DNA of 42,967 bases from a virus (Duplodnaviria; Heunggongvirae; Uroviricota; Caudoviricetes). Made by a program: the position numbers and the translations under genes. Where the stretch lies: IMG/VR virus record IMGVR_UViG_2563366803_000007, positions 1 through 42,967 of that record; one strand, 5' to 3'. Shown piece by piece: positions 19,894 to 39,783 of this stretch (position 1 is its first letter; each line of letters starts with the position of its first letter). The notes below the pieces were generated by a model that did not search any database, was not told where the DNA came from, and saw only the letters and a list, made by a program, of their open reading frames with translations.

Positions 19894-20667
19894 TCAGGCG
19901 AGATAAGAATGAGGGTTGGGGAAGACGATCTCTTTGTAACAGCGACAGTTCGGGAGCTCGCCAGCATGACCGGTCATGCCGTCAAGCGTAGGGGGTCGGC
20001 CCCATTCGACAAACTTGCCCTCCATCTCACGATGAGAGTGCCGGACGTCGCCATCTTCGGCTGTACGCCAGATATAACCATTCGAGCCGATTGACAGCGC
20101 ACGCGCCTGATCCAGCGCGCCGGTTGCGCGTCCAAGCTCGGTACGGGCGATAAGGTTCGCTCGTGAGCGTGACACGTCACCGGACGCAGCTATCTCTTTC
20201 GCGAATGGCTCAGCGCGGCCACCAGTCACAACGGCCTCGATGGCTTTGTTCTGAATGTCATACACCCGATCGGCGGCCTCAAGAGGCAGCGATTTGATGT
20301 ACTTAATTTGCTCAGCGACGATGGATTTCATCACCTGGCCTACCGGGGCGCGGTCGACCATGTTGCGCAGCTCTGAACTGATGTTCCGGCTGTGCTGACG
20401 CCACTGCTTTTCATTCTGGCGTGCAATGTCGGCGGTAAAGTTCTCAGCTACCTTCGTCGCCCAGGGGGTGATGATTTCACTGTAGCGTTCCAGCGCCTCA
20501 ATAATTTCCGTGATACTGTCATTTGAACCATCGTAGCGACCATTTACGATGTCCCCGACCGCCCGCGCTATCCTGCGTAGACTGGTTCGATACCGGATTT
20601 CCGCCTGACGGTTCCTGCGGTTCGTCATCAGGTTCGCCGATGCCGGGCGGCGCTTCGTCTTCGGCAT
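19894..20667 (-). CDS. Head morphogenesis protein (Mu F / SPP1 gp7 family; 257 aa, start uncertain)
   Basis: C-terminal block GHAGELPNCRC typical of this family; follows the portal gene. Confidence 0.65.
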   Translation of the reverse strand: MPKTKRRPASANLMTNRRNRQAEIRYRTSLRRIARAVGDIVNGRYDGSNDSITEIIEALERYSEIITPWATKVAENFTADIARQNEKQWRQHSRNISSELRNMVDRAPVGQVMKSIVAEQIKYIKSLPLEAADRVYDIQNKAIEAVVTGGRAEPFAKEIAASGDVSRSRANLIARTELGRATGALDQARALSIGSNGYIWRTAEDGDVRHSHREMEGKFVEWGRPPTLDGMTGHAGELPNCRCYKEIVFPNPHSYLA

Positions 20668-21985
20668 TCTCTATGTCCTCGTCGGTAATGGATGCCCCGA
20701 TGCCGGTTACGTCAGAATTTTCGCGCAAATCGGTCATAGCGGCTTTCAGTGTCATCAGACCATCACCCAGCGCCGTACTGATTGCGTTGGTAGTGTTTAA
20801 CGCCACCGTTGAGCGATCGACATCAGACATTTGCCAGAGCGGGTTAAACTCAAACGTGAAATCGTCCGGCAGCGGCTTGCCAAGTTCCGAGCGGTGCATG
20901 ATGTCCAGTATCCGCCGCACCGGAAGACGTAAACGTCTCTCCTGCAACGAACTGATGCGGTCGTAATAGTTGGCAAGGTCTGCATCGCCGGTAGAAAATC
21001 CCTTCGGGGACTGTCCGAACAACCGCACCAGTGGGATACCAACAGCGCCACTAATCTGTTCTGCAAACTGTGAAAGGATGTCATCCAGACCACTGAAGCT
21101 GTACTGATGCGTTTCAAACTTATCCCGCGAGTCCATGAGCGTCATGCCTTCATTGCTCTGGAACTGTCGAATCAGGTCGATATTCTTCAGCAACGCTTCA
21201 TACGCAGGACCACCAAGTGCGATAAGCTCGCGTAGCTTCTCCACGCTGTAGGTACGCAAATGCGCCTTGTAGACCAGCTGCGCCGCGCCGACAGTGGCGC
21301 TATCGAACGCAGTAAGCCGATCCCAGATACGCTCTACAACCGACATTCCCCATTCGTTTTCGGTCATCTTCTGCTGGAATGGCAGCGTCACCCCGTCGAA
21401 GCGAATCAGGCGGCTGTGATGGATGCGCCAGGCCGGGATGCCCGTTGCAGTGGTCACCACGTCGTAAAACTCAGGTTTACCCAGGTCCGGCCCCATCTCT
21501 TTAATGCGGCGGGTCAGCACCGGGTTAATCATCCAGCGGTCGAGCGGGAGAATACCCTTAAACTTGCCTTCTCCAATGGTTTCGAGCCGCAACGGGGTCA
21601 TTGGTGCCTGCCCCTCAATCATGATGAAGCCAACCGCGCCGCCGTAGAGACGCGACCATTTCAGCACGTCGTTCAGCGCATCCCAGATCTGCAACTCATC
21701 CAGCTGCGCTTCCAGGGTGCCACGGTCTTTGGCGTCAATCTCCGAAGTGATGCGAATGCCTTTCCGGGTCATATCGTCCGGGATAGCGTCGACCGCTTCG
21801 CCGATGATCCAGGACGAACGATAGGACCATTCCACCAGCATGCGGTTGCGGCTGGTGAAGTTAGCCCGGTAGGTCGATGCTGAGTGCTGGTTAGGCGTCT
21901 GCATCCCCACGCGGGCGACAAAGTTCTCATAGCCATCAGCGGTGGCCTGTGCCGTTCGCTGAGAGGCTTGCTTGTTTCGCGCCAT
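20519..21985 (-). CDS. Portal protein (488 aa)
   Basis: Size and position immediately after terminase large subunit; start overlaps terminase stop. Confidence 0.7.
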   Translation of the reverse strand: MARNKQASQRTAQATADGYENFVARVGMQTPNQHSASTYRANFTSRNRMLVEWSYRSSWIIGEAVDAIPDDMTRKGIRITSEIDAKDRGTLEAQLDELQIWDALNDVLKWSRLYGGAVGFIMIEGQAPMTPLRLETIGEGKFKGILPLDRWMINPVLTRRIKEMGPDLGKPEFYDVVTTATGIPAWRIHHSRLIRFDGVTLPFQQKMTENEWGMSVVERIWDRLTAFDSATVGAAQLVYKAHLRTYSVEKLRELIALGGPAYEALLKNIDLIRQFQSNEGMTLMDSRDKFETHQYSFSGLDDILSQFAEQISGAVGIPLVRLFGQSPKGFSTGDADLANYYDRISSLQERRLRLPVRRILDIMHRSELGKPLPDDFTFEFNPLWQMSDVDRSTVALNTTNAISTALGDGLMTLKAAMTDLRENSDVTGIGASITDEDIENAEDEAPPGIGEPDDEPQEPSGGNPVSNQSTQDSAGGRGHRKWSLRWFK

Positions 21986-23607
21986 CAGGCCTGTCTCCCT
22001 AGCAGCTCCCAGATGTTCAGGGCTGAATTCATTGGTGCGTAGCTGATCATCACCGAGTCGGCGAGGTTCGGCGACTTGGTGCCGTCAGGCTGTTTATCAA
22101 TAACGATTTTCCCCACTCCGTTAATGGAGTAGGTCGGCTGCGACAGCTCGATGATGAGTTTGTCTTTGCTCGCCATGGCGCTGCTGATTGAGATGATTTC
22201 GTCCGGGTTGTAGGCCATGCCCTCAACCACGGCACGGTAGGTGTTCTGGAAAAGTTTACGTAACCGCCACCAGCTCTGGGCTTTGGCGTTAGCGAAGAAG
22301 TCCTTGTTCAGACGTGCGGCTTGCCCGTTGTCCCCGCGAACAGCTTCATCATCCGGATCAAATACCGCGCCACTACCTCGAAACGGTGTGGCGAGTATTG
22401 ACGGTCGACGCGCAGCGTTACGCAGTTCGTTGATAGCGCGTGCATCGCCGCGAACGCCAGCGCCCAGCCCGTCCTCGTCAAAGCGAAACTCTTCGAGGTT
22501 GTCCTGTTCGCAAAAGCCGAAGACCTTCTCAACGGACTGGTAAATGTCGCTGCCCACGCCGGACCATTCCCGCACGTTCTCCAGGAGGAAGCCGTGACGG
22601 GTCGAAAAGGCGTTTTTGTCCCGGCCTTCGTCGGCGACGTCCATCGCGCCCAGTCGCTTGCCTGTTGGCTGGATGCCCAGCTTGATATGCGCGTCGACAG
22701 CAGCCTGTACCCAGTCGGATGGGATCAGGACGCCTTCCGCTGATGCGCTGTAGTTCAGATCAAGTTCCTGTGCCACCACCACCGGATTATCGATTTTCTC
22801 GCATTCCCTGCGATACCACTCTTCATCCTTGCGAGGATCATCCCGCCAGTGGAATGTGAATACCGGTATCTTCCCGCCATGACGCTTCTGAGCGAACGGG
22901 TTCGCCATGCCGTTAACTGAACTCAGGTCAATACGGCAACGCGTCGTTTGTGACAACGCCGCATCAATCAGCAGAGGACGCTGAAGGAATGCAGCCTCAT
23001 CAACCAGATAAAGCGTGGTACGGTCACCACGACCAATATTATCGCCAGCCTCGCCTTTGATAACGGCACCAGTTTCAGGAAACTCAACACGCATATATGG
23101 CGCGTGCTTCTTCTCGCTCCACGAACCGCGAAACTCTACAGGTAGTGTTTCCACGAACTTGCGCGCCTTCCAGAACAATGCTTTCGGGTCACCGGTGCTG
23201 TCGACGTATTCCTCTTTACGGGAGCCGAAACCGATAACCATTTCTTTGTTGAAGAGACAAAGCGAGCAGGCCAGTCCGATCGCGGTCCAACTGAGCCCCA
23301 TTTCACGGGATTTTTCGGTAATACCATTCTCCCGATTGCCCCAGCGTTCCATAATCCAGTGGATCCACTCCTCCTGCTTAGGGAAGAGTAAAAACGGAAT
23401 GGTCACCGGCAGGCCATAATCAATATTACGCGGGTCCGTTGTCATGCCCCAGTCGATGATGAACTGAGCCGGATTGGTTCGGTAAAACTGTTTTAGTGCA
23501 GGCAATATTTCAGGATTCTGGCGAATGCGTTGTAGGCGTTCCATCCGCCATTCAAAAACCATCTGGTAATCAGGATGTTTAAAATCGAAGGGAAATGGTA
23601 ACGGCAT
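21985..23607 (-). CDS. Terminase large subunit (540 aa)
   Basis: Size, position after small subunit, ATPase-like region LYLVDEAAF. Confidence 0.85.
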
Positions 23608-23609
23608 AC

Positions 23610-24179
23610 TTAGCCCATCATTTTTCTATACGCCTCTGCAGCCTGCTCCGGCGTTAAGTTGGTAATTTCTGTTCTGACTGGTCCTCCATCGGCGCCAGTC
23701 ACTTCATTTTTGACGTTGTCTTTAAACGCCTGAACAGAAACATGGCGCCCAAGCAACTCAAGGTTTTTAACCTTATCAGGCCATTTAATCTTCTTCAGGA
23801 TGCCAACCATCTCTCGGTCATCGCCGCGTCCTTCGAACATTTCCGCAAGATCAAATCCACTGAGGTAGCGCCGCCATGATGCAGGCCACTCAGAGACAGG
23901 CTTCAGACTCATGTCATCAGTCATGATGTCGAGCACGTCCATTTGGTCTATCTCAACCAAGCGTCGCAGAACATAGGCGGCATCGATACCAGTCTGCTCA
24001 ATGCGGGCTGCCTTAAGTTCGGCGACAAAGTTTTGGACATTAACATTTGCTAACAGGCGTGATGCTTGTTCATTGGCAGTCTTCTCGCTGTAACCCGCCC
24101 TGATAGCTGCCTGTGTGGCGTTTAAATCTTTCAGGTACTCACGGGCAAACAGCTCTTGTTTGTCTGTGAGCTTTGCCAT
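23610..24179 (-). CDS. Terminase small subunit (189 aa)
   Basis: N-terminus [31 protein letters not shown] typical of small terminase subunits. Confidence 0.75.
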
Positions 24180-24404
24180 TATTGGCTCCGTTTATCCGTT
24201 AAAAGGGATATCAGTTAAGTTATCCCGTAGGGTATAAGCCATTGTCGAGACCACTCATTGAATGGCCTCTGCAATAACCGATGTCTTTCCATCAGTCCGC
24301 CACCACAAAGAATCTTTTTTGCCATAAGGCTGGAGGTTCATCTTTCAGTGGCTGCCAGTGTTATTTCCCCACTTTCTGGCTTGGGTTGTTTCGCTGTACT
24401 GCCG

Positions 24405-24947
24405 TTAATTGGTGAGTCCGGGGATTACGGTTTGCCCGTGCTGTTCAAGGCGTTCAATTCTCGCCAGTAGCTGAGGCTTCTTAATTTTTCCCCAGCGATT
24501 AAGCAGGCGGCCTGACATGCTGGCAACATCCTTCTCTTTCATGTACTCCAGCATTACGGCATTTCTCTCTTCTTCAAATTGACGATGACCAACCTGAAGC
24601 ATGGCGTACATCCAGTTGAATGCGTTGATGTAAGCAATTTTGATACGCATTGCTTCTTTTTTGGTGTAGGACATAACCAAAAGCATCAACCCATCCTTGC
24701 GGAGACGGTAGAATTTTTGCGGCTTACCATTCTGTAACTCATTGTTTTTATAGCAAAGCTCAAAGTTGAGCTTTGTATCAAACTCAGGAGGGCAAGCTTC
24801 TATGGTTCGCTCAATGTCACGGACTACGTTCTTCGGCAGCTTTCCAAATGCTTTTGCCACCATAAAAGAATCTGTAACCGGATCGTTGTTTGCTACAAAA
24901 ATTAGGTCTCTGAAATCTATATCGTTAACAACGGTTGGGTAGTTCAT
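24405..24947 (-). CDS. Rha-family phage regulatory protein (180 aa from ATG at 24945..24947)
   Basis: N-terminal block VTDSFMVAKAFGKLPKNVVRDIERTIE resembles the Rha domain; track ORF starts at an upstream GTG. Confidence 0.65.
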   Translation of the reverse strand: MNYPTVVNDIDFRDLIFVANNDPVTDSFMVAKAFGKLPKNVVRDIERTIEACPPEFDTKLNFELCYKNNELQNGKPQKFYRLRKDGLMLLVMSYTKKEAMRIKIAYINAFNWMYAMLQVGHRQFEEERNAVMLEYMKEKDVASMSGRLLNRWGKIKKPQLLARIERLEQHGQTVIPGLTN

Positions 24948-25090
24948 AGCGTCTTTACCTTTTAGAAAGTGAGCCTGTCTCACAGAAAAGCCGCCCGAGA
25001 GAGGTCGCCACCTATAACGGCATTTCTCAGGCTCGCTTACTGAAAGGCTCTCGTTAATATGCGCGTGAGATGCGCGTTTACTGCGGACAT

Positions 25091-25113
25091 AAAAAAGCCC
25101 CGCATCGCGAGGC
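25091..25113 (-). terminator. Putative rho-independent terminator downstream of Rz
   Basis: Minus-strand hairpin GCCTCGC-GAT-GCGGGGC followed by TTTTTT. Confidence 0.45.
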
Positions 25114-25145
25114 TCATTAAATGGACTTTGTGATTTGCAAAAAAA

Positions 25146-25604
25146 TTATTTCAGGCATTGCGTCCTGATGTATTCCTGCAGGTAGTTGACCTGTGCGGTT
25201 ATCTTGTCGATTCCACTTCGGAGACGGTAATAATTGAGTTCAGCATCTGCTGTAAGTCCTGGGCTTTCTCCATCGCCCATGCCGCTGGCTCCGGTCGTTG
25301 ACTTTGCACAGGTGGCGGCGACTTGCAGGCGCTTACGCCCAGCAGAAACATCAGCACGGAGACTTTCGATAGTCGCGTTAGCATCAGCAAGCTCCTTTAT
25401 GTATCTTGCGTCGAGTTCTGCTACATCACGTTGACGCTTCCGCATGTCAGCGATGGTGGCGTTCGCCTTCTCCAGTTCACTGGCCTTGTTATCGCGCTGC
25501 TCTTTGTAGGCGATTGCGTTATCACGGTAATGATTAACAGCCCATGACAGGCAAACGATGATGCAGATAACCAGAGCGGAGATAATCGCGGTTACTCTGC
25601 TCAT
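25146..25604 (-). CDS. Rz: Spanin inner-membrane subunit Rz (152 aa)
   Basis: N-terminus [31 protein letters not shown] as remembered for lambda Rz. Confidence 0.9.
25199..25390 (-). CDS. Rz1: Spanin outer-membrane lipoprotein Rz1, embedded in Rz in another frame (start uncertain)
   Basis: Embedded ORF with lipobox-like LLGVSAC followed by Pro-rich segment. Confidence 0.55.
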
Positions 25605-26077
25605 ACCTCAATCTCTCTGACCGTTCCGCCAGCTTCTTTGAATTTTGCAATCAGGCTGTCAGCCTTATGCTCGAACTGACCATAACCAGCCCCCGGCAGT
25701 GAAGCCCAGATATTGCTGCAACGGTCGATTGCCTGACGAATATCACCGTGGTCAATCATCGGTAAAGCGCCACGCTCTTTAATCTGTTGCAGTGCCACAG
25801 CGTCCTGGCTTTTCGGAGAGAAGTCTTTCAGGCCAAGCTGCTTACGATAGGCATCCCACCAACGGGAAAGAAGCTGGTAGCGTCCGGCGGCTGTTGATTT
25901 GAGTTTGGGGTTTAGCGTGACAAGTTTGCGAGGGTGATCGGAGTAATCAGTGAATAGCTCTCCTCCTACAATGACGTCATAACCATGATTTCTGGTTTTC
26001 TGACGTCCGTTATCAGTTCCCTCTGACCACGCCAGCATATCGAGGAACGCCTTACGTTGATTATTGATTTCCACCAT
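25601..26077 (-). CDS. R: Endolysin R (lambda-type lytic transglycosylase, 158 aa)
   Basis: Matches lambda R from memory ([24 protein letters not shown]...). Confidence 0.95.
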
Positions 26078-26384
26078 CTTCTATTCCGGCTTTTTTAGCA
26101 GCGAAGCGTTTGATAAGCGAACCAATCGAGTCAGTACCGATGTAGCCGATGAACACGCTCGTTATATAAGCGAGATTGCTACTTAGTCCGGCGAAGTCGA
26201 GAAGGTCACGAATGAACCAGGCGATAATGGCGCACATCGTTGCGTCGATTACTGTTTTTGTAAACGCACCGCCATTATATCTGCCGCGAAGGTACGCCAT
26301 TGCAAACGCAAGGATTGCCCCGATGCCTTGTTCCTTTGCCGCGAGAATGGCGGCTAACAGGTCATGTTTTTCTGGCATCTTCAT
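26061..26384 (-). CDS. S: Holin S (107 aa)
   Basis: Matches lambda S from memory ([22 protein letters not shown]...); dual-start motif MKM. Confidence 0.95.
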
Positions 26385-26626: not shown

Positions 26627-26702
26627 TGGTGCTGGTTAACGGACTTGAACCGCTACCCATTCGCTTACAAGGCGACTGCTCTACCATTGGAGCTAAACCA
26701 GC
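26627..26702 (-). tRNA. tRNA-Thr (anticodon UGU), phage-encoded
   Basis: Manual cloverleaf: 7-bp acceptor stem GCTGGTT/AACCAGC, D stem GCTC/GAGC, anticodon loop CTTGTAA, T loop TTCAAGT, 3' ACCA encoded. Confidence 0.6.
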
Positions 26703-26707
26703 ATATT

Positions 26708-26782
26708 TGGCGGGACAGCGTGGACTCGAACCACGATAAGAAGGTTAACAGCCTTCCGTAATGACCTTTATACGACTGACCC
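26708..26782 (-). tRNA. tRNA-Asn-like (anticodon GUU), possibly degenerate
   Basis: Manual cloverleaf: anticodon stem GAAGG/CCTTC, loop CTGTTAA, T arm CGTGG-TTCGAGT-CCACG, CCA encoded; one mismatch each in acceptor and D stems. Confidence 0.45.
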
Positions 26783-26873: not shown

Positions 26874-27362
26874 CTATGCTACATGTTTAATTTTCTCTAC
26901 ACGTTTCCGGTTTTTAAACGCACTATCCAGAACCGGGTAAATCATAAACAACGAGGCATTGAGGATTTCGTCAACTTCCCGTCGACAGGTTGCGAGCGAT
27001 GGTTTTTGAATGCGCCCGCCGCCCCGGCATAACATCTTGCGAGGTCTTGCGACGCGATGATAGTAAGATGCAATGGCGTGCTTGGAAGAGCCGTGGGCGT
27101 AGTAGCTGAGGAGGATGCCAAAGGCTTTCTTGTCAATGTACATGACGGAATCGACGACCTGAGAAATCAACATTCCATCATCATCATTACACATTGGCCT
27201 TGTCATAACTCTTCCCGGCTCTACGCTCTCCATGAACTTCGCTATTACGCTGCTCATGCGCTTTTCCAGGCGGCCTGAATAAACCCATGCGCCCCACAGT
27301 TCAAGCCAGCCATTCAGCCACTCATGCTGTTCTTTGGTGAGGTTTAGTTCTCTTATGCCCAT
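26874..27362 (-). CDS. Late-gene antiterminator Q-like protein (162 aa from ATG at 27360..27362); not lambda Q
   Basis: Position between ninG and the lysis cassette; GGGAGAAGG RBS; Cys-containing C-terminal region. Confidence 0.6.
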   Translation of the reverse strand: MGIRELNLTKEQHEWLNGWLELWGAWVYSGRLEKRMSSVIAKFMESVEPGRVMTRPMCNDDDGMLISQVVDSVMYIDKKAFGILLSYYAHGSSKHAIASYYHRVARPRKMLCRGGGRIQKPSLATCRREVDEILNASLFMIYPVLDSAFKNRKRVEKIKHVA

Positions 27363-27405
27363 GCGCCTTCTCCCTTGTGATCTGGAATGGTTTTTACTGA
27401 GAACG

Positions 27406-28011
27406 TCATGCGGCCTCACTTCTGCTGTTTCGCAGGTCTTTGAGTTTCTGCTGATACTCCGCCTTGATGGCCCTGCACTCTTCGACAGTCCAGCGATGGC
27501 GGTTATGGTTTGATTCGATTTCGTCTACTGCTTCCTGCCCGATGCGGTTAATCAGTTCGACGCGATACGGAACGAGATTTCCGCTTTTGTGCTGGTTGCA
27601 CACCACGCATTGCTTGTGAATATTGCGTTCATCAAATCGGAGTTGAGGTGCCGCAGCAGTTGTCCGGTAATGCCCGGCATCCCACTGAGCAGACGTGAGC
27701 GTTCCGCACGAGATACATGGTAAGTCGCGGTCTCTTTCTCTGATGAAGGCGTTTACGGCTTGTTGGGCTTGTTTAATCCAGTAACTGCGGGGCTTTAAGG
27801 CGAGTTTTCGAATCTTAAGTTTATCTTTCTGTTTCTGCTCCTCTCGTCGTCGTTTCTTCTCTGCTGCTTTTTCCGCTTTTTTTCGCTGTTTACTTTGTAG
27901 TTTGAGTGCTAACTGAGTTCCGTGTTCCGGGCAGCACCACCACTGATTTGAGAATGCCGGGTGAAACCATTCCTTGCATATTTTGCATTTCCTTCGCGCT
28001 GGTTTAGCCAT
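27406..28011 (-). CDS. ninG: NinG/Rap recombination-promoting nuclease (201 aa)
   Basis: Near-identical to lambda NinG as remembered (MAKPARR...[44 protein letters not shown]). Confidence 0.9.
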
Positions 28012-39331: not shown

Positions 39332-39622
39332 ATGAAAACAATGAAGCTAAACATCGACCTCGGCAAATACGTTATTACCGGAACCAAACACGATCTGATT
39401 CTTAGCGAAAGAGGAATTATCAAAGAAGGCGAGAATGCAGGGAAAGAAACACTAAGTCGTATCGGTTATTACAGCAAGTTTGAGCATCTGGTTAAAGAGT
39501 TATGCAACCGTGAAATCCTGTTATCTCAGGCGCAGACACTACAGGATATTCAGCAGCATATCGAAACTTTAGGTATGTCACTTAGCATGGCTATTGACCA
39601 GTTCATGGAGAGTAAATCATGA
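39332..39622 (+). CDS. Hypothetical protein (96 aa)
   Basis: GAGGA RBS before ATG at 39332; early-left accessory region. Confidence 0.4.
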
Positions 39623-39783
39623 GAGGACTTGCATACAATCCCGGCATTCTTCCGGCAGAAATGATTATTCGCCAACGCGTAAAGCCAATGCCATCGAGAG
39701 AGGAATTGCTTAAAAGAAATAGTTTCGGTTCTGTTAATGACAACAAATATCTGAATGCGATGTGGCGGAGTGGGAAGAAATGA
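39619..39783 (+). CDS. Small hypothetical protein (54 aa)
   Basis: ATG overlaps upstream stop (ATGA); coupled to the next gene. Confidence 0.3.

Follow-up and report, generated by a model that had tools for sequence, protein, structure and literature searches.

The stretch of DNA analysed here (the window, 42,967 nucleotides (nt), positions 1 to 42,967 of IMG/VR virus record IMGVR_UViG_2563366803_000007) is a lambdoid prophage read backwards. At the boundary of its lysis and packaging modules it carries rha, a gene for a Rha-family protein, preceded by an intrinsic terminator and, between this terminator and the rha ATG, by a leader of 147 nt. A Rha-family open reading frame (ORF) between lysis and packaging had been predicted here from the letters of the sequence, and this is confirmed: Rz lies upstream and a Terminase_2-type terS downstream, all on the minus strand. 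The gene is the known rha accessory cassette, the counterpart of P22 rha/ORF201 in the same slot, present here as a new allele; both rha and its slot between Rz and terminase are already known from P22 and are widespread. Our main finding concerns the leader, which comparative sequence evidence identifies as a conserved structured RNA that is independent of the gene it precedes, is absent from Rfam and is elsewhere known only as P22F, a small RNA of phage P22. The features of the locus are as follows.

25146–25604, minus strand: Rz (i-spanin), last lysis gene and upstream neighbour (Pfam PF03245, E = 1.9 × 10−38)
25089–25115, minus strand: intrinsic terminator GAGCCUCGCGAUGCGGGGCUU followed by UUUUUU (stem-loop 25115–25095), from a terminator scan
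25059–25076, minus strand: GCGC-N7-GCGC small hairpin or motif CGCGCAUCUCACGCGCAU, in all leader types and paired in the minimum free energy fold
24957–25048, minus strand: rod-like leader hairpin of ~92 nt (covariance-model match 24945–25053)
24970–24984, minus strand: inverted repeat GTGAG-ACAGG-CTCAC, named in the original prediction
24405–24947, minus strand: rha coding sequence, 180 amino acids (aa) plus stop, from Pfam, PHROG, BLASTP and a start-codon test
24180–24404, minus strand: non-coding trailer of 225 nt, from the rha stop to the terS start
23610–24179, minus strand: terS, Terminase_2 small subunit, downstream neighbour (Pfam PF03592, E = 5 × 10−38)

Fifteen diverged leader variants, each folded singly, all gave the same rod-like hairpin of ~95 nt, composed of a basal helix, two further helices, a 3′-side internal loop CUGUGNGAC, two inner helices and a variable tip. 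Within the basal helix, the anti-Shine-Dalgarno segment GCCUUU (25048–25043) is paired with the Shine-Dalgarno (SD) sequence AAAGGU (24962–24957). At 37 °C the probability of being unpaired is ≤0.05 for every AAAGGU base except the first A (0.13), and the SD is occluded over the whole range of 30–42 °C, with all values ≤0.21 at 42 °C. An RNA thermometer was rejected because the SD is still paired at 42 °C. These single-sequence folds, together with a covariance-model alignment, replaced a first alignment of 13 leaders by MAFFT and RNAalifold, in which the outer helices were mis-registered because MAFFT did not place the compensating indels.

The covariance model, R1, was built from two window-type sequences only, and it found one forward match in each of 63 of the 64 loci, including P22-, C- and mEp237-type leaders (60–70% identical). 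Across the whole 43-kb window R1 gave a single forward-strand match (24945–25053), and across the whole P22 genome likewise one match; it gave no match in three loci without the leader. In the R1-based alignment, 94.9% of cells are in standard pairs and 25 of the 28 pairs changed on both sides. The covariation score of this alignment was 0.528, compared with 0.206 ± 0.008 in shuffles (0 of 500 reached the score) and 0.03–0.10 when partners were slid by 1–3 columns. The pairs that hold the SD covary as well, changing from UA to CG or AU at columns 9/130, 10/127 and 11/126. A search of Rfam over 24100–25250, at E up to 1, returned two chance-level matches (21.6 and 19 bits against gathering thresholds of 70 and 86).

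Two smaller elements of the leader are also shared between phages. The sequence of the internal loop (24976–24984; columns 98–105 of alignment A6) is conserved across most leader types, which suggests that it may serve as a binding or tertiary-contact site. Every leader type, the P22-, C- and mEp237-type among them, also has the GCGC-N7-GCGC hairpin (25059–25076), placed after the terminator and before the long hairpin. The original prediction had drawn attention to a different element, the small inverted repeat GTGAG-ACAGG-CTCAC just before the ribosome-binding site (RBS) of rha. This repeat is present at 24984–24970 but does not hold up as a signal, as it consists of two pieces of the long hairpin, namely the internal loop and the 3′ arm of helix 3, and occurs at chance frequency (39 repeats with 5-bp arms and a 5-nt loop in the window, ~42 expected); only 6 of 63 leader variants retain it, and in Sf101 it is broken.

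The terminator, in turn, is where it had been predicted. Its stem-loop (25115–25095) has nine pairs, six of them G-C, a 3-nt loop and a TTTTTT tail, and lies 30 nt after the Rz stop. The terminator scan alone showed no excess over chance (5 sites in 3 kb compared with 3.1 expected). Among homologous leaders, a terminator-like hairpin with a T-run stands no more than 100 nt upstream in 53 of 63 cases, compared with 1 of 63 control windows, and the HK106 copy is annotated as a rho-independent terminator. These leader-linked terminators comprise 43 different, often non-homologous stem-loops; as non-homologous terminators stand at the same place, the pairing of terminator and leader is itself conserved. 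By this comparative evidence, the intrinsic terminator is real and has been kept both in position and in predicted function. It is not, however, Rha's own, as had been proposed. The terminator and the leader up to the ATG occur before unrelated genes in HK620 and HK106 and therefore belong to the slot, not to Rha.

We determined how far this shared segment extends by pairwise comparison of the flanks of rha with four phages that carry other genes in the slot, which revealed sharp mosaic joints. The segment from 25114 to 24943, running from the terminator to 4–5 nt into the ORF, is common to the window, HK620 and HK106; its homologue stands upstream of hkbK (KilA-N plus ORF11CD3) in HK620 and upstream of a T5orf172/GIY-YIG gene in HK106, where the leader is 100% identical. 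On the other side of the slot, the segment from 24414 to 24171, which begins 10 nt short of the rha stop and reaches 8 nt into terS, is common to the window, HK620, HK106 and the Escherichia phage Louie. In other phages the slot holds Rha, KilA-N, T5orf172/GIY-YIG, Tad2-like, HNH or membrane proteins, and in some it is empty.

When the leader was searched by itself, it matched 255 phage records at identities down to 68%. The hosts of the leader-bearing phages are Escherichia, Salmonella, Klebsiella, Enterobacter, Hafnia and Edwardsiella, and the matches stand upstream of Rha, of KilA-N, of a membrane protein and of a phi80-like protein of unknown function. The range of cargo widened further in a pattern scan of IMG/VR: among the matches listed there are at least 122 leader sites and at least 55 cargo clusters, which include several Rha types, KilA-N, T5orf172, HNH, many small ORFs, a 485-aa protein with a weak, below-threshold glycosyltransferase match and a Dp-1-type holin-like protein. 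Rz was recognised upstream, with eight Rz queries, at no fewer than 43 of 107 IMG/VR sites among the matches listed. The cassette is dispensable, since vB_EcoM-689R2 (L332, 1167–1229) has the same terS/terL/portal module with no cassette and 61 nt between Rz and terS. The insertion boundaries could not be defined from this empty site, its Rz/terS junction being too diverged (~70%).

Several cargo arrangements in other phages merit separate mention. A large family related to mEp237 gp62 and a phi80 ORF lies behind the same leader (L381, L336, L404 and others); its members have a conserved N-terminus (...ITLSGAATDVLYALFFRGAL...), a C-terminal ...ALKPGG... and a highly variable middle of 155–330 aa, and one member matches Phage_Tail_Tip (PF09327; 35 bits against a cut-off of 22, E = 1.3 × 10−8). 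In Louie (L004), the gene in the post-Rz slot (1634–2104) is annotated 'anti-CRISPR' and matches the Pfam family Tad2-like (Thoeris anti-defence 2, E = 9 × 10−27); this slot has the terminator in common with the window, but not the long leader. Two loci carry the 3′ end of the leader twice, ~500 nt apart (L364, 2747–2780 and 3245–3276; L411, 12052–12085 and 12550–12581), with one copy before a 75-aa ORF and the other before a KilA-N gene, so that cassettes can be stacked, each with its own leader.

The cargo in the window is itself a typical member of its family. The rha product matches Phage_pRha (PF09669; 77.1 bits against a gathering threshold of 29.9) at aa 25–113 (nt 24609–24875), ORF11CD3 (PF10549; 91.2 bits against a cut-off of 25) at aa 125–176 (nt 24420–24575), and PHROG 518, 'Rha-like transcriptional regulator' (E = 1.5 × 10−81). 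Translation starts at the ATG at 24947, and the resulting 180-aa form is also found in RefSeq Sf101 and in NCBI cluster P0002 (705 members). The open frame runs from 24405 to 24983 when an upstream GTG is counted; this GTG (24983) was rejected as the start, as only 5 of 63 leader variants have it in frame with no stop codon before the ATG. The region is matched by 230 phage records, many of them annotated Rha (Sf101, CUS-3, POCJ13, Stx phages and P22 relatives), and 294 protein homologues were found across Enterobacterales, mostly of ~180 aa and with both domains.

Relative to P22 Rha, the protein is 56% identical over its full length (BLASTP, E = 3 × 10−66), with the C-terminal ~55 residues nearly identical and the N-terminal Rha domain far more diverged. 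The DNA similarity to P22 rha is 93% from 24576 to 24221 and is undetectable across the N-terminal domain. This mosaic joint inside rha, at 24576, falls on the boundary between Phage_pRha and ORF11CD3, and with P22 similarity on one side of it, the two domains of rha have different histories. In an AlphaFold model (mean predicted local distance difference test score 73) the N-terminal domain is mixed alpha/beta, and two long helices, at residues 97–143 and 146–171, follow it towards the C-terminus. The Rha family has been described as winged helix-turn-helix (PMC8951638). The Rha proteins of P22 and phi80 block phage growth in hosts deficient in integration host factor (IHF; himA/hip) (Henthorn & Friedman 1995, J Bacteriol 177:3185, as cited in PMC4936722 and PMC8951638), and in these two citing papers, IHF-linked growth inhibition is the sole experimental phenotype that could be traced for the P22 and phi80 homologues. 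We found no exact IHF consensus WATCARNNNNTTR near rha and none in the leader, with one 1-mismatch site inside the rha ORF; no IHF consensus site was thus found that could tie the leader to the classical Rha phenotype.

The downstream flank of the cassette is also conserved. The trailer (24180–24404) is non-coding and folds better than shuffled sequence (z = −3.16), and it is ≥90% identical in most of ~200 phage records regardless of cargo, with similarity stopping 8 nt into terS (joint 24171). In other phages the trailer stands upstream of a DUF2560 gene (hkbM/orf80) and not terS, and there too similarity stops 8 nt into the next ORF; annotators have placed tiny ORFs of 24, 25 or 36 aa in it.

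Both flanks have counterparts among published RNAs. Ten small RNAs have been reported in P22-infected Salmonella (Naaz et al. 2026, PMC13397905), of which P22F (89 nt) and P22G (204 nt) reach hundreds to thousands of reads per million in infected cells and vesicles; that paper gives no function for either. P22F corresponds to NC_002371 39550–39638, lies inside the R1 match at 39537–39641 and ends 6 nt before the P22 rha ATG. P22G starts in the 3′ end of P22 rha and is 96% identical to the window from 24463 to 24262, and its homologue (24262–24463) overlaps the last 59 nt of rha. As P22F and P22G map to leader and trailer, stable RNAs build up in P22 from either side of the cassette.

How rha is likely to be expressed depends on the surrounding operon. 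By the ORF list and Pfam, every gene around rha is on the minus strand, and rha lies within the late operon, downstream of Q, holin, lysozyme and Rz. The remaining genes are given below; the two tRNA genes, tRNA-Thr (TGT) and tRNA-Asn (GTT), belong to the leader of the late operon, with the Q-like gene on one side and the holin on the other.

26874–27419, minus strand: Q-like ORF
26627–26782, minus strand: tRNA-Asn and tRNA-Thr
26061–26384, minus strand: holin
25601–26077, minus strand: lysozyme
25199–25390, minus strand: Rz1 lipoprotein ORF, embedded in Rz
21985–23607, minus strand: large terminase
20519–21985, minus strand: portal

Taken together, the locus is probably best explained as a P22-type rha cassette with Q-dependent late expression, throttled translation and a DNA-binding accessory protein as its product. 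As no promoter was found, and no conserved −35/−10 pair was seen by eye across leader types, transcription of rha would depend entirely on Q-modified RNA polymerase that starts at pR′ and reads past the terminator. In other conditions, such as in the lysogen, the terminator would keep unmodified transcription out of the cassette and the packaging genes. Translation of the cargo from the abundant late mRNA would then be held low by the leader hairpin, or made dependent on processing or on a host factor, and cargo throttled in this way may often be toxic. Because the cargo varies, the factor that opens the gate would have to be one that all these phages, or their hosts, share. A candidate opener, by analogy with the lambda N leader, is an RNase III-type activity that processes the long imperfect stem; speculatively, the 5′ end of P22F, which lies downstream of the anti-SD strand, would fit processing that frees the SD. 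Rha itself would be a dispensable DNA-binding protein of the 'Bro network', probably oligomerising through its helical ORF11CD3 domain.

More tentatively, these elements may amount to something general. The terminator, the GCGC hairpin and the SD-sequestering rod could together form a portable control module for any cargo, often toxic, in the late operon of Enterobacterales lambdoid phages, with a gate opened by a factor that the hosts or the phages have in common, for instance by way of RNase III-type processing or in an IHF-linked step. Such a module would represent an undescribed class of phage cis-regulatory RNA. If this possibility were true, an IHF-linked opening of the module might explain why Rha is harmful in IHF-deficient hosts.

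Five points weigh against this account. First, the alignment used for covariation was fitted to the model structure and favours that structure; despite this, the leader fold is secure, given the independent folds and the effect size. Second, among 20 genes rha has the least accessible RBS, though by a small margin (0.34 compared with 0.36–0.79, as a crude mean over positions −15 to −6), and since rha is lowest but no outlier, the ranking by RBS accessibility does not discriminate. Third, the scan of the minus strand from 25145 to 24947, which found no sigma-70-like promoter, was limited to the sigma-70 consensus. Fourth, neither a sequence nor a fold search returned a significant match between Rha and a solved relative, and DNA binding by Rha therefore rests on the Pfam description and the literature. 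Finally, P22F is a discrete RNA of 89 nt, which could mean either a trans-acting small RNA or a stable decay fragment.

This last point raises the alternative that the leader hairpin, and likewise the trailer, is primarily a gene for a trans-acting small RNA and not a cis-acting control. The abundance of P22F and P22G in P22-infected cells and vesicles (PMC13397905) and the high conservation of the leader sequence across phages are both what such a gene would lead one to expect. Nevertheless, the sigma-70 scan gave no promoter, and an ORF start always follows within a few nt of the end of the element, whose basal helix holds the SD in pairs that covary; moreover, stable structured pieces of an abundant mRNA are easily caught in small-RNA libraries. 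We accordingly regard a primary role in trans as unlikely.

About equally improbable, in our view, is that Rha is a conflict gene, whether for superinfection exclusion, abortive infection or anti-defence, instead of regulating transcription within the phage's own programme. The company that Rha keeps lends this idea some support, as the same slot holds the Tad2-like (anti-Thoeris) gene of Louie, nucleases and membrane proteins, and the classical Rha phenotype is one of abortive infection in IHF-deficient hosts (going by the titles of Mozola et al. 1985). The position in the late operon and the lack of a detected promoter argue against the expression from the prophage that defence would need.

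The original prediction had favoured another view, in which the gap between Rz and terminase is a classic moron site and Rha a regulator that sometimes acts as an antirepressor; accordingly, rha would be an autonomous moron with its own signals, acting on lysogeny and induction. The first half of this proposal stands in part. The slot is hypervariable and polymorphic in the way of a moron site, and the cassette is present in some relatives and absent in others (vB_EcoM-689R2 is empty; other phages have other cargo). A classical moron has a promoter of its own, is followed by a terminator and is expressed in the prophage state. By that standard rha is not a moron in the strict sense, as it has no promoter that we could find, its terminator lies upstream and not downstream (no minus-strand terminator-like site was found after rha, from 24404 to 24180), and this terminator and the leader are common to unrelated cargo.

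The antirepressor role fares worse and is unsupported. RefSeq labels P22 rha 'anti-repressor', and several of the weaker PHROG matches bear the same name; these labels are annotation transfers, and the experiments cited concern IHF-dependent growth inhibition only. Pfam gives only Phage_pRha and ORF11CD3 in the rha product, with no ANT/KilAC (PF03374) or P22_AR domain. The location differs as well: rha lies in the late operon between Rz and terS, whereas the true and separate ant of P22 lies in immI, and the late-operon position implies that rha is expressed after the decision to go lytic. We therefore consider it very unlikely that rha is an autonomous moron encoding an antirepressor.

It is just as doubtful that leader and trailer are recombination linkers for cassette swapping with no RNA function, for although the mosaic joints fall exactly at the flank ends (24943, inside rha, and 24171, inside terS) and the trailer is near-identical among otherwise diverged phages, compensatory change in 25 of 28 pairs, 94.9% pairing across leader types only ~60–70% identical, and the replacement of the terminator by non-homologous terminators at the same place all speak for an RNA role. 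The linker and RNA roles are compatible, and cassette exchange probably does make use of the homology that the flanks offer.

In itself, rha adds little: the window holds one further allele of it, and the gene has been known from P22 and phi80 since the 1980s–90s. The correction to the original prediction matters more: the signals ascribed to Rha are a leader module that occurs in at least 255 phage records, before dozens of unrelated accessory genes. If the module does gate translation, it would explain how lambdoid phages carry toxic cargo in their most strongly transcribed operon, would give P22F a function, and would provide a sequence handle with which to find accessory, defence and anti-defence genes in prophages.

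Among known systems, lambda offers two partial parallels. The lambda N leader is a phage mRNA leader that sequesters the RBS and is processed by RNase III, and like the leader in the window it forms a long imperfect hairpin that includes the Shine-Dalgarno sequence of the downstream gene. The two have no sequence relationship, and the link to RNase III is by analogy only. The second parallel is lambda bor, a moron downstream of Rz. It occupies the same neighbourhood as rha in the window and is similarly present in some relatives and absent in others; rha differs from the classical lambdoid morons in its upstream terminator and in that no promoter was found. PMC10695390 lists bor after Rz.

P22 rha, together with phi80 rha, is among the closest known counterparts; P22 rha shares with the window the slot (Rz/Rz1, rha, small ORFs, terminase small subunit), the same two domains, a homologous terminator upstream of rha, and a leader and trailer that are structurally homologous. 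Its N-terminal Rha domain and its leader represent a different allele, and the downstream neighbours differ: the P22 map reads 15 (Rz)/Rz1, rha, orf25, orf80, orf59c and gene 3, whereas the window has a Terminase_2 terS from a different virion module in place of orf80/orf59c/gene 3. P22F and P22G were reported in PMC13397905 without the conserved fold, the pairing of the SD, the link to a terminator or the independence from cargo that we describe here. In the KilA-N proteins HK620 hkbK and SPN3UB gp71, the same slot and the same leader up to the ATG are found as in the window. HK620 hkbK also has an ORF11CD3 C-terminus like that of the window Rha, but joined to KilA-N as its N-terminal DNA-binding domain, an arrangement in keeping with the 'Bro network' of domain-shuffled phage regulators (Iyer, Koonin & Aravind 2002, as cited in PMC8951638; PMC10111431).

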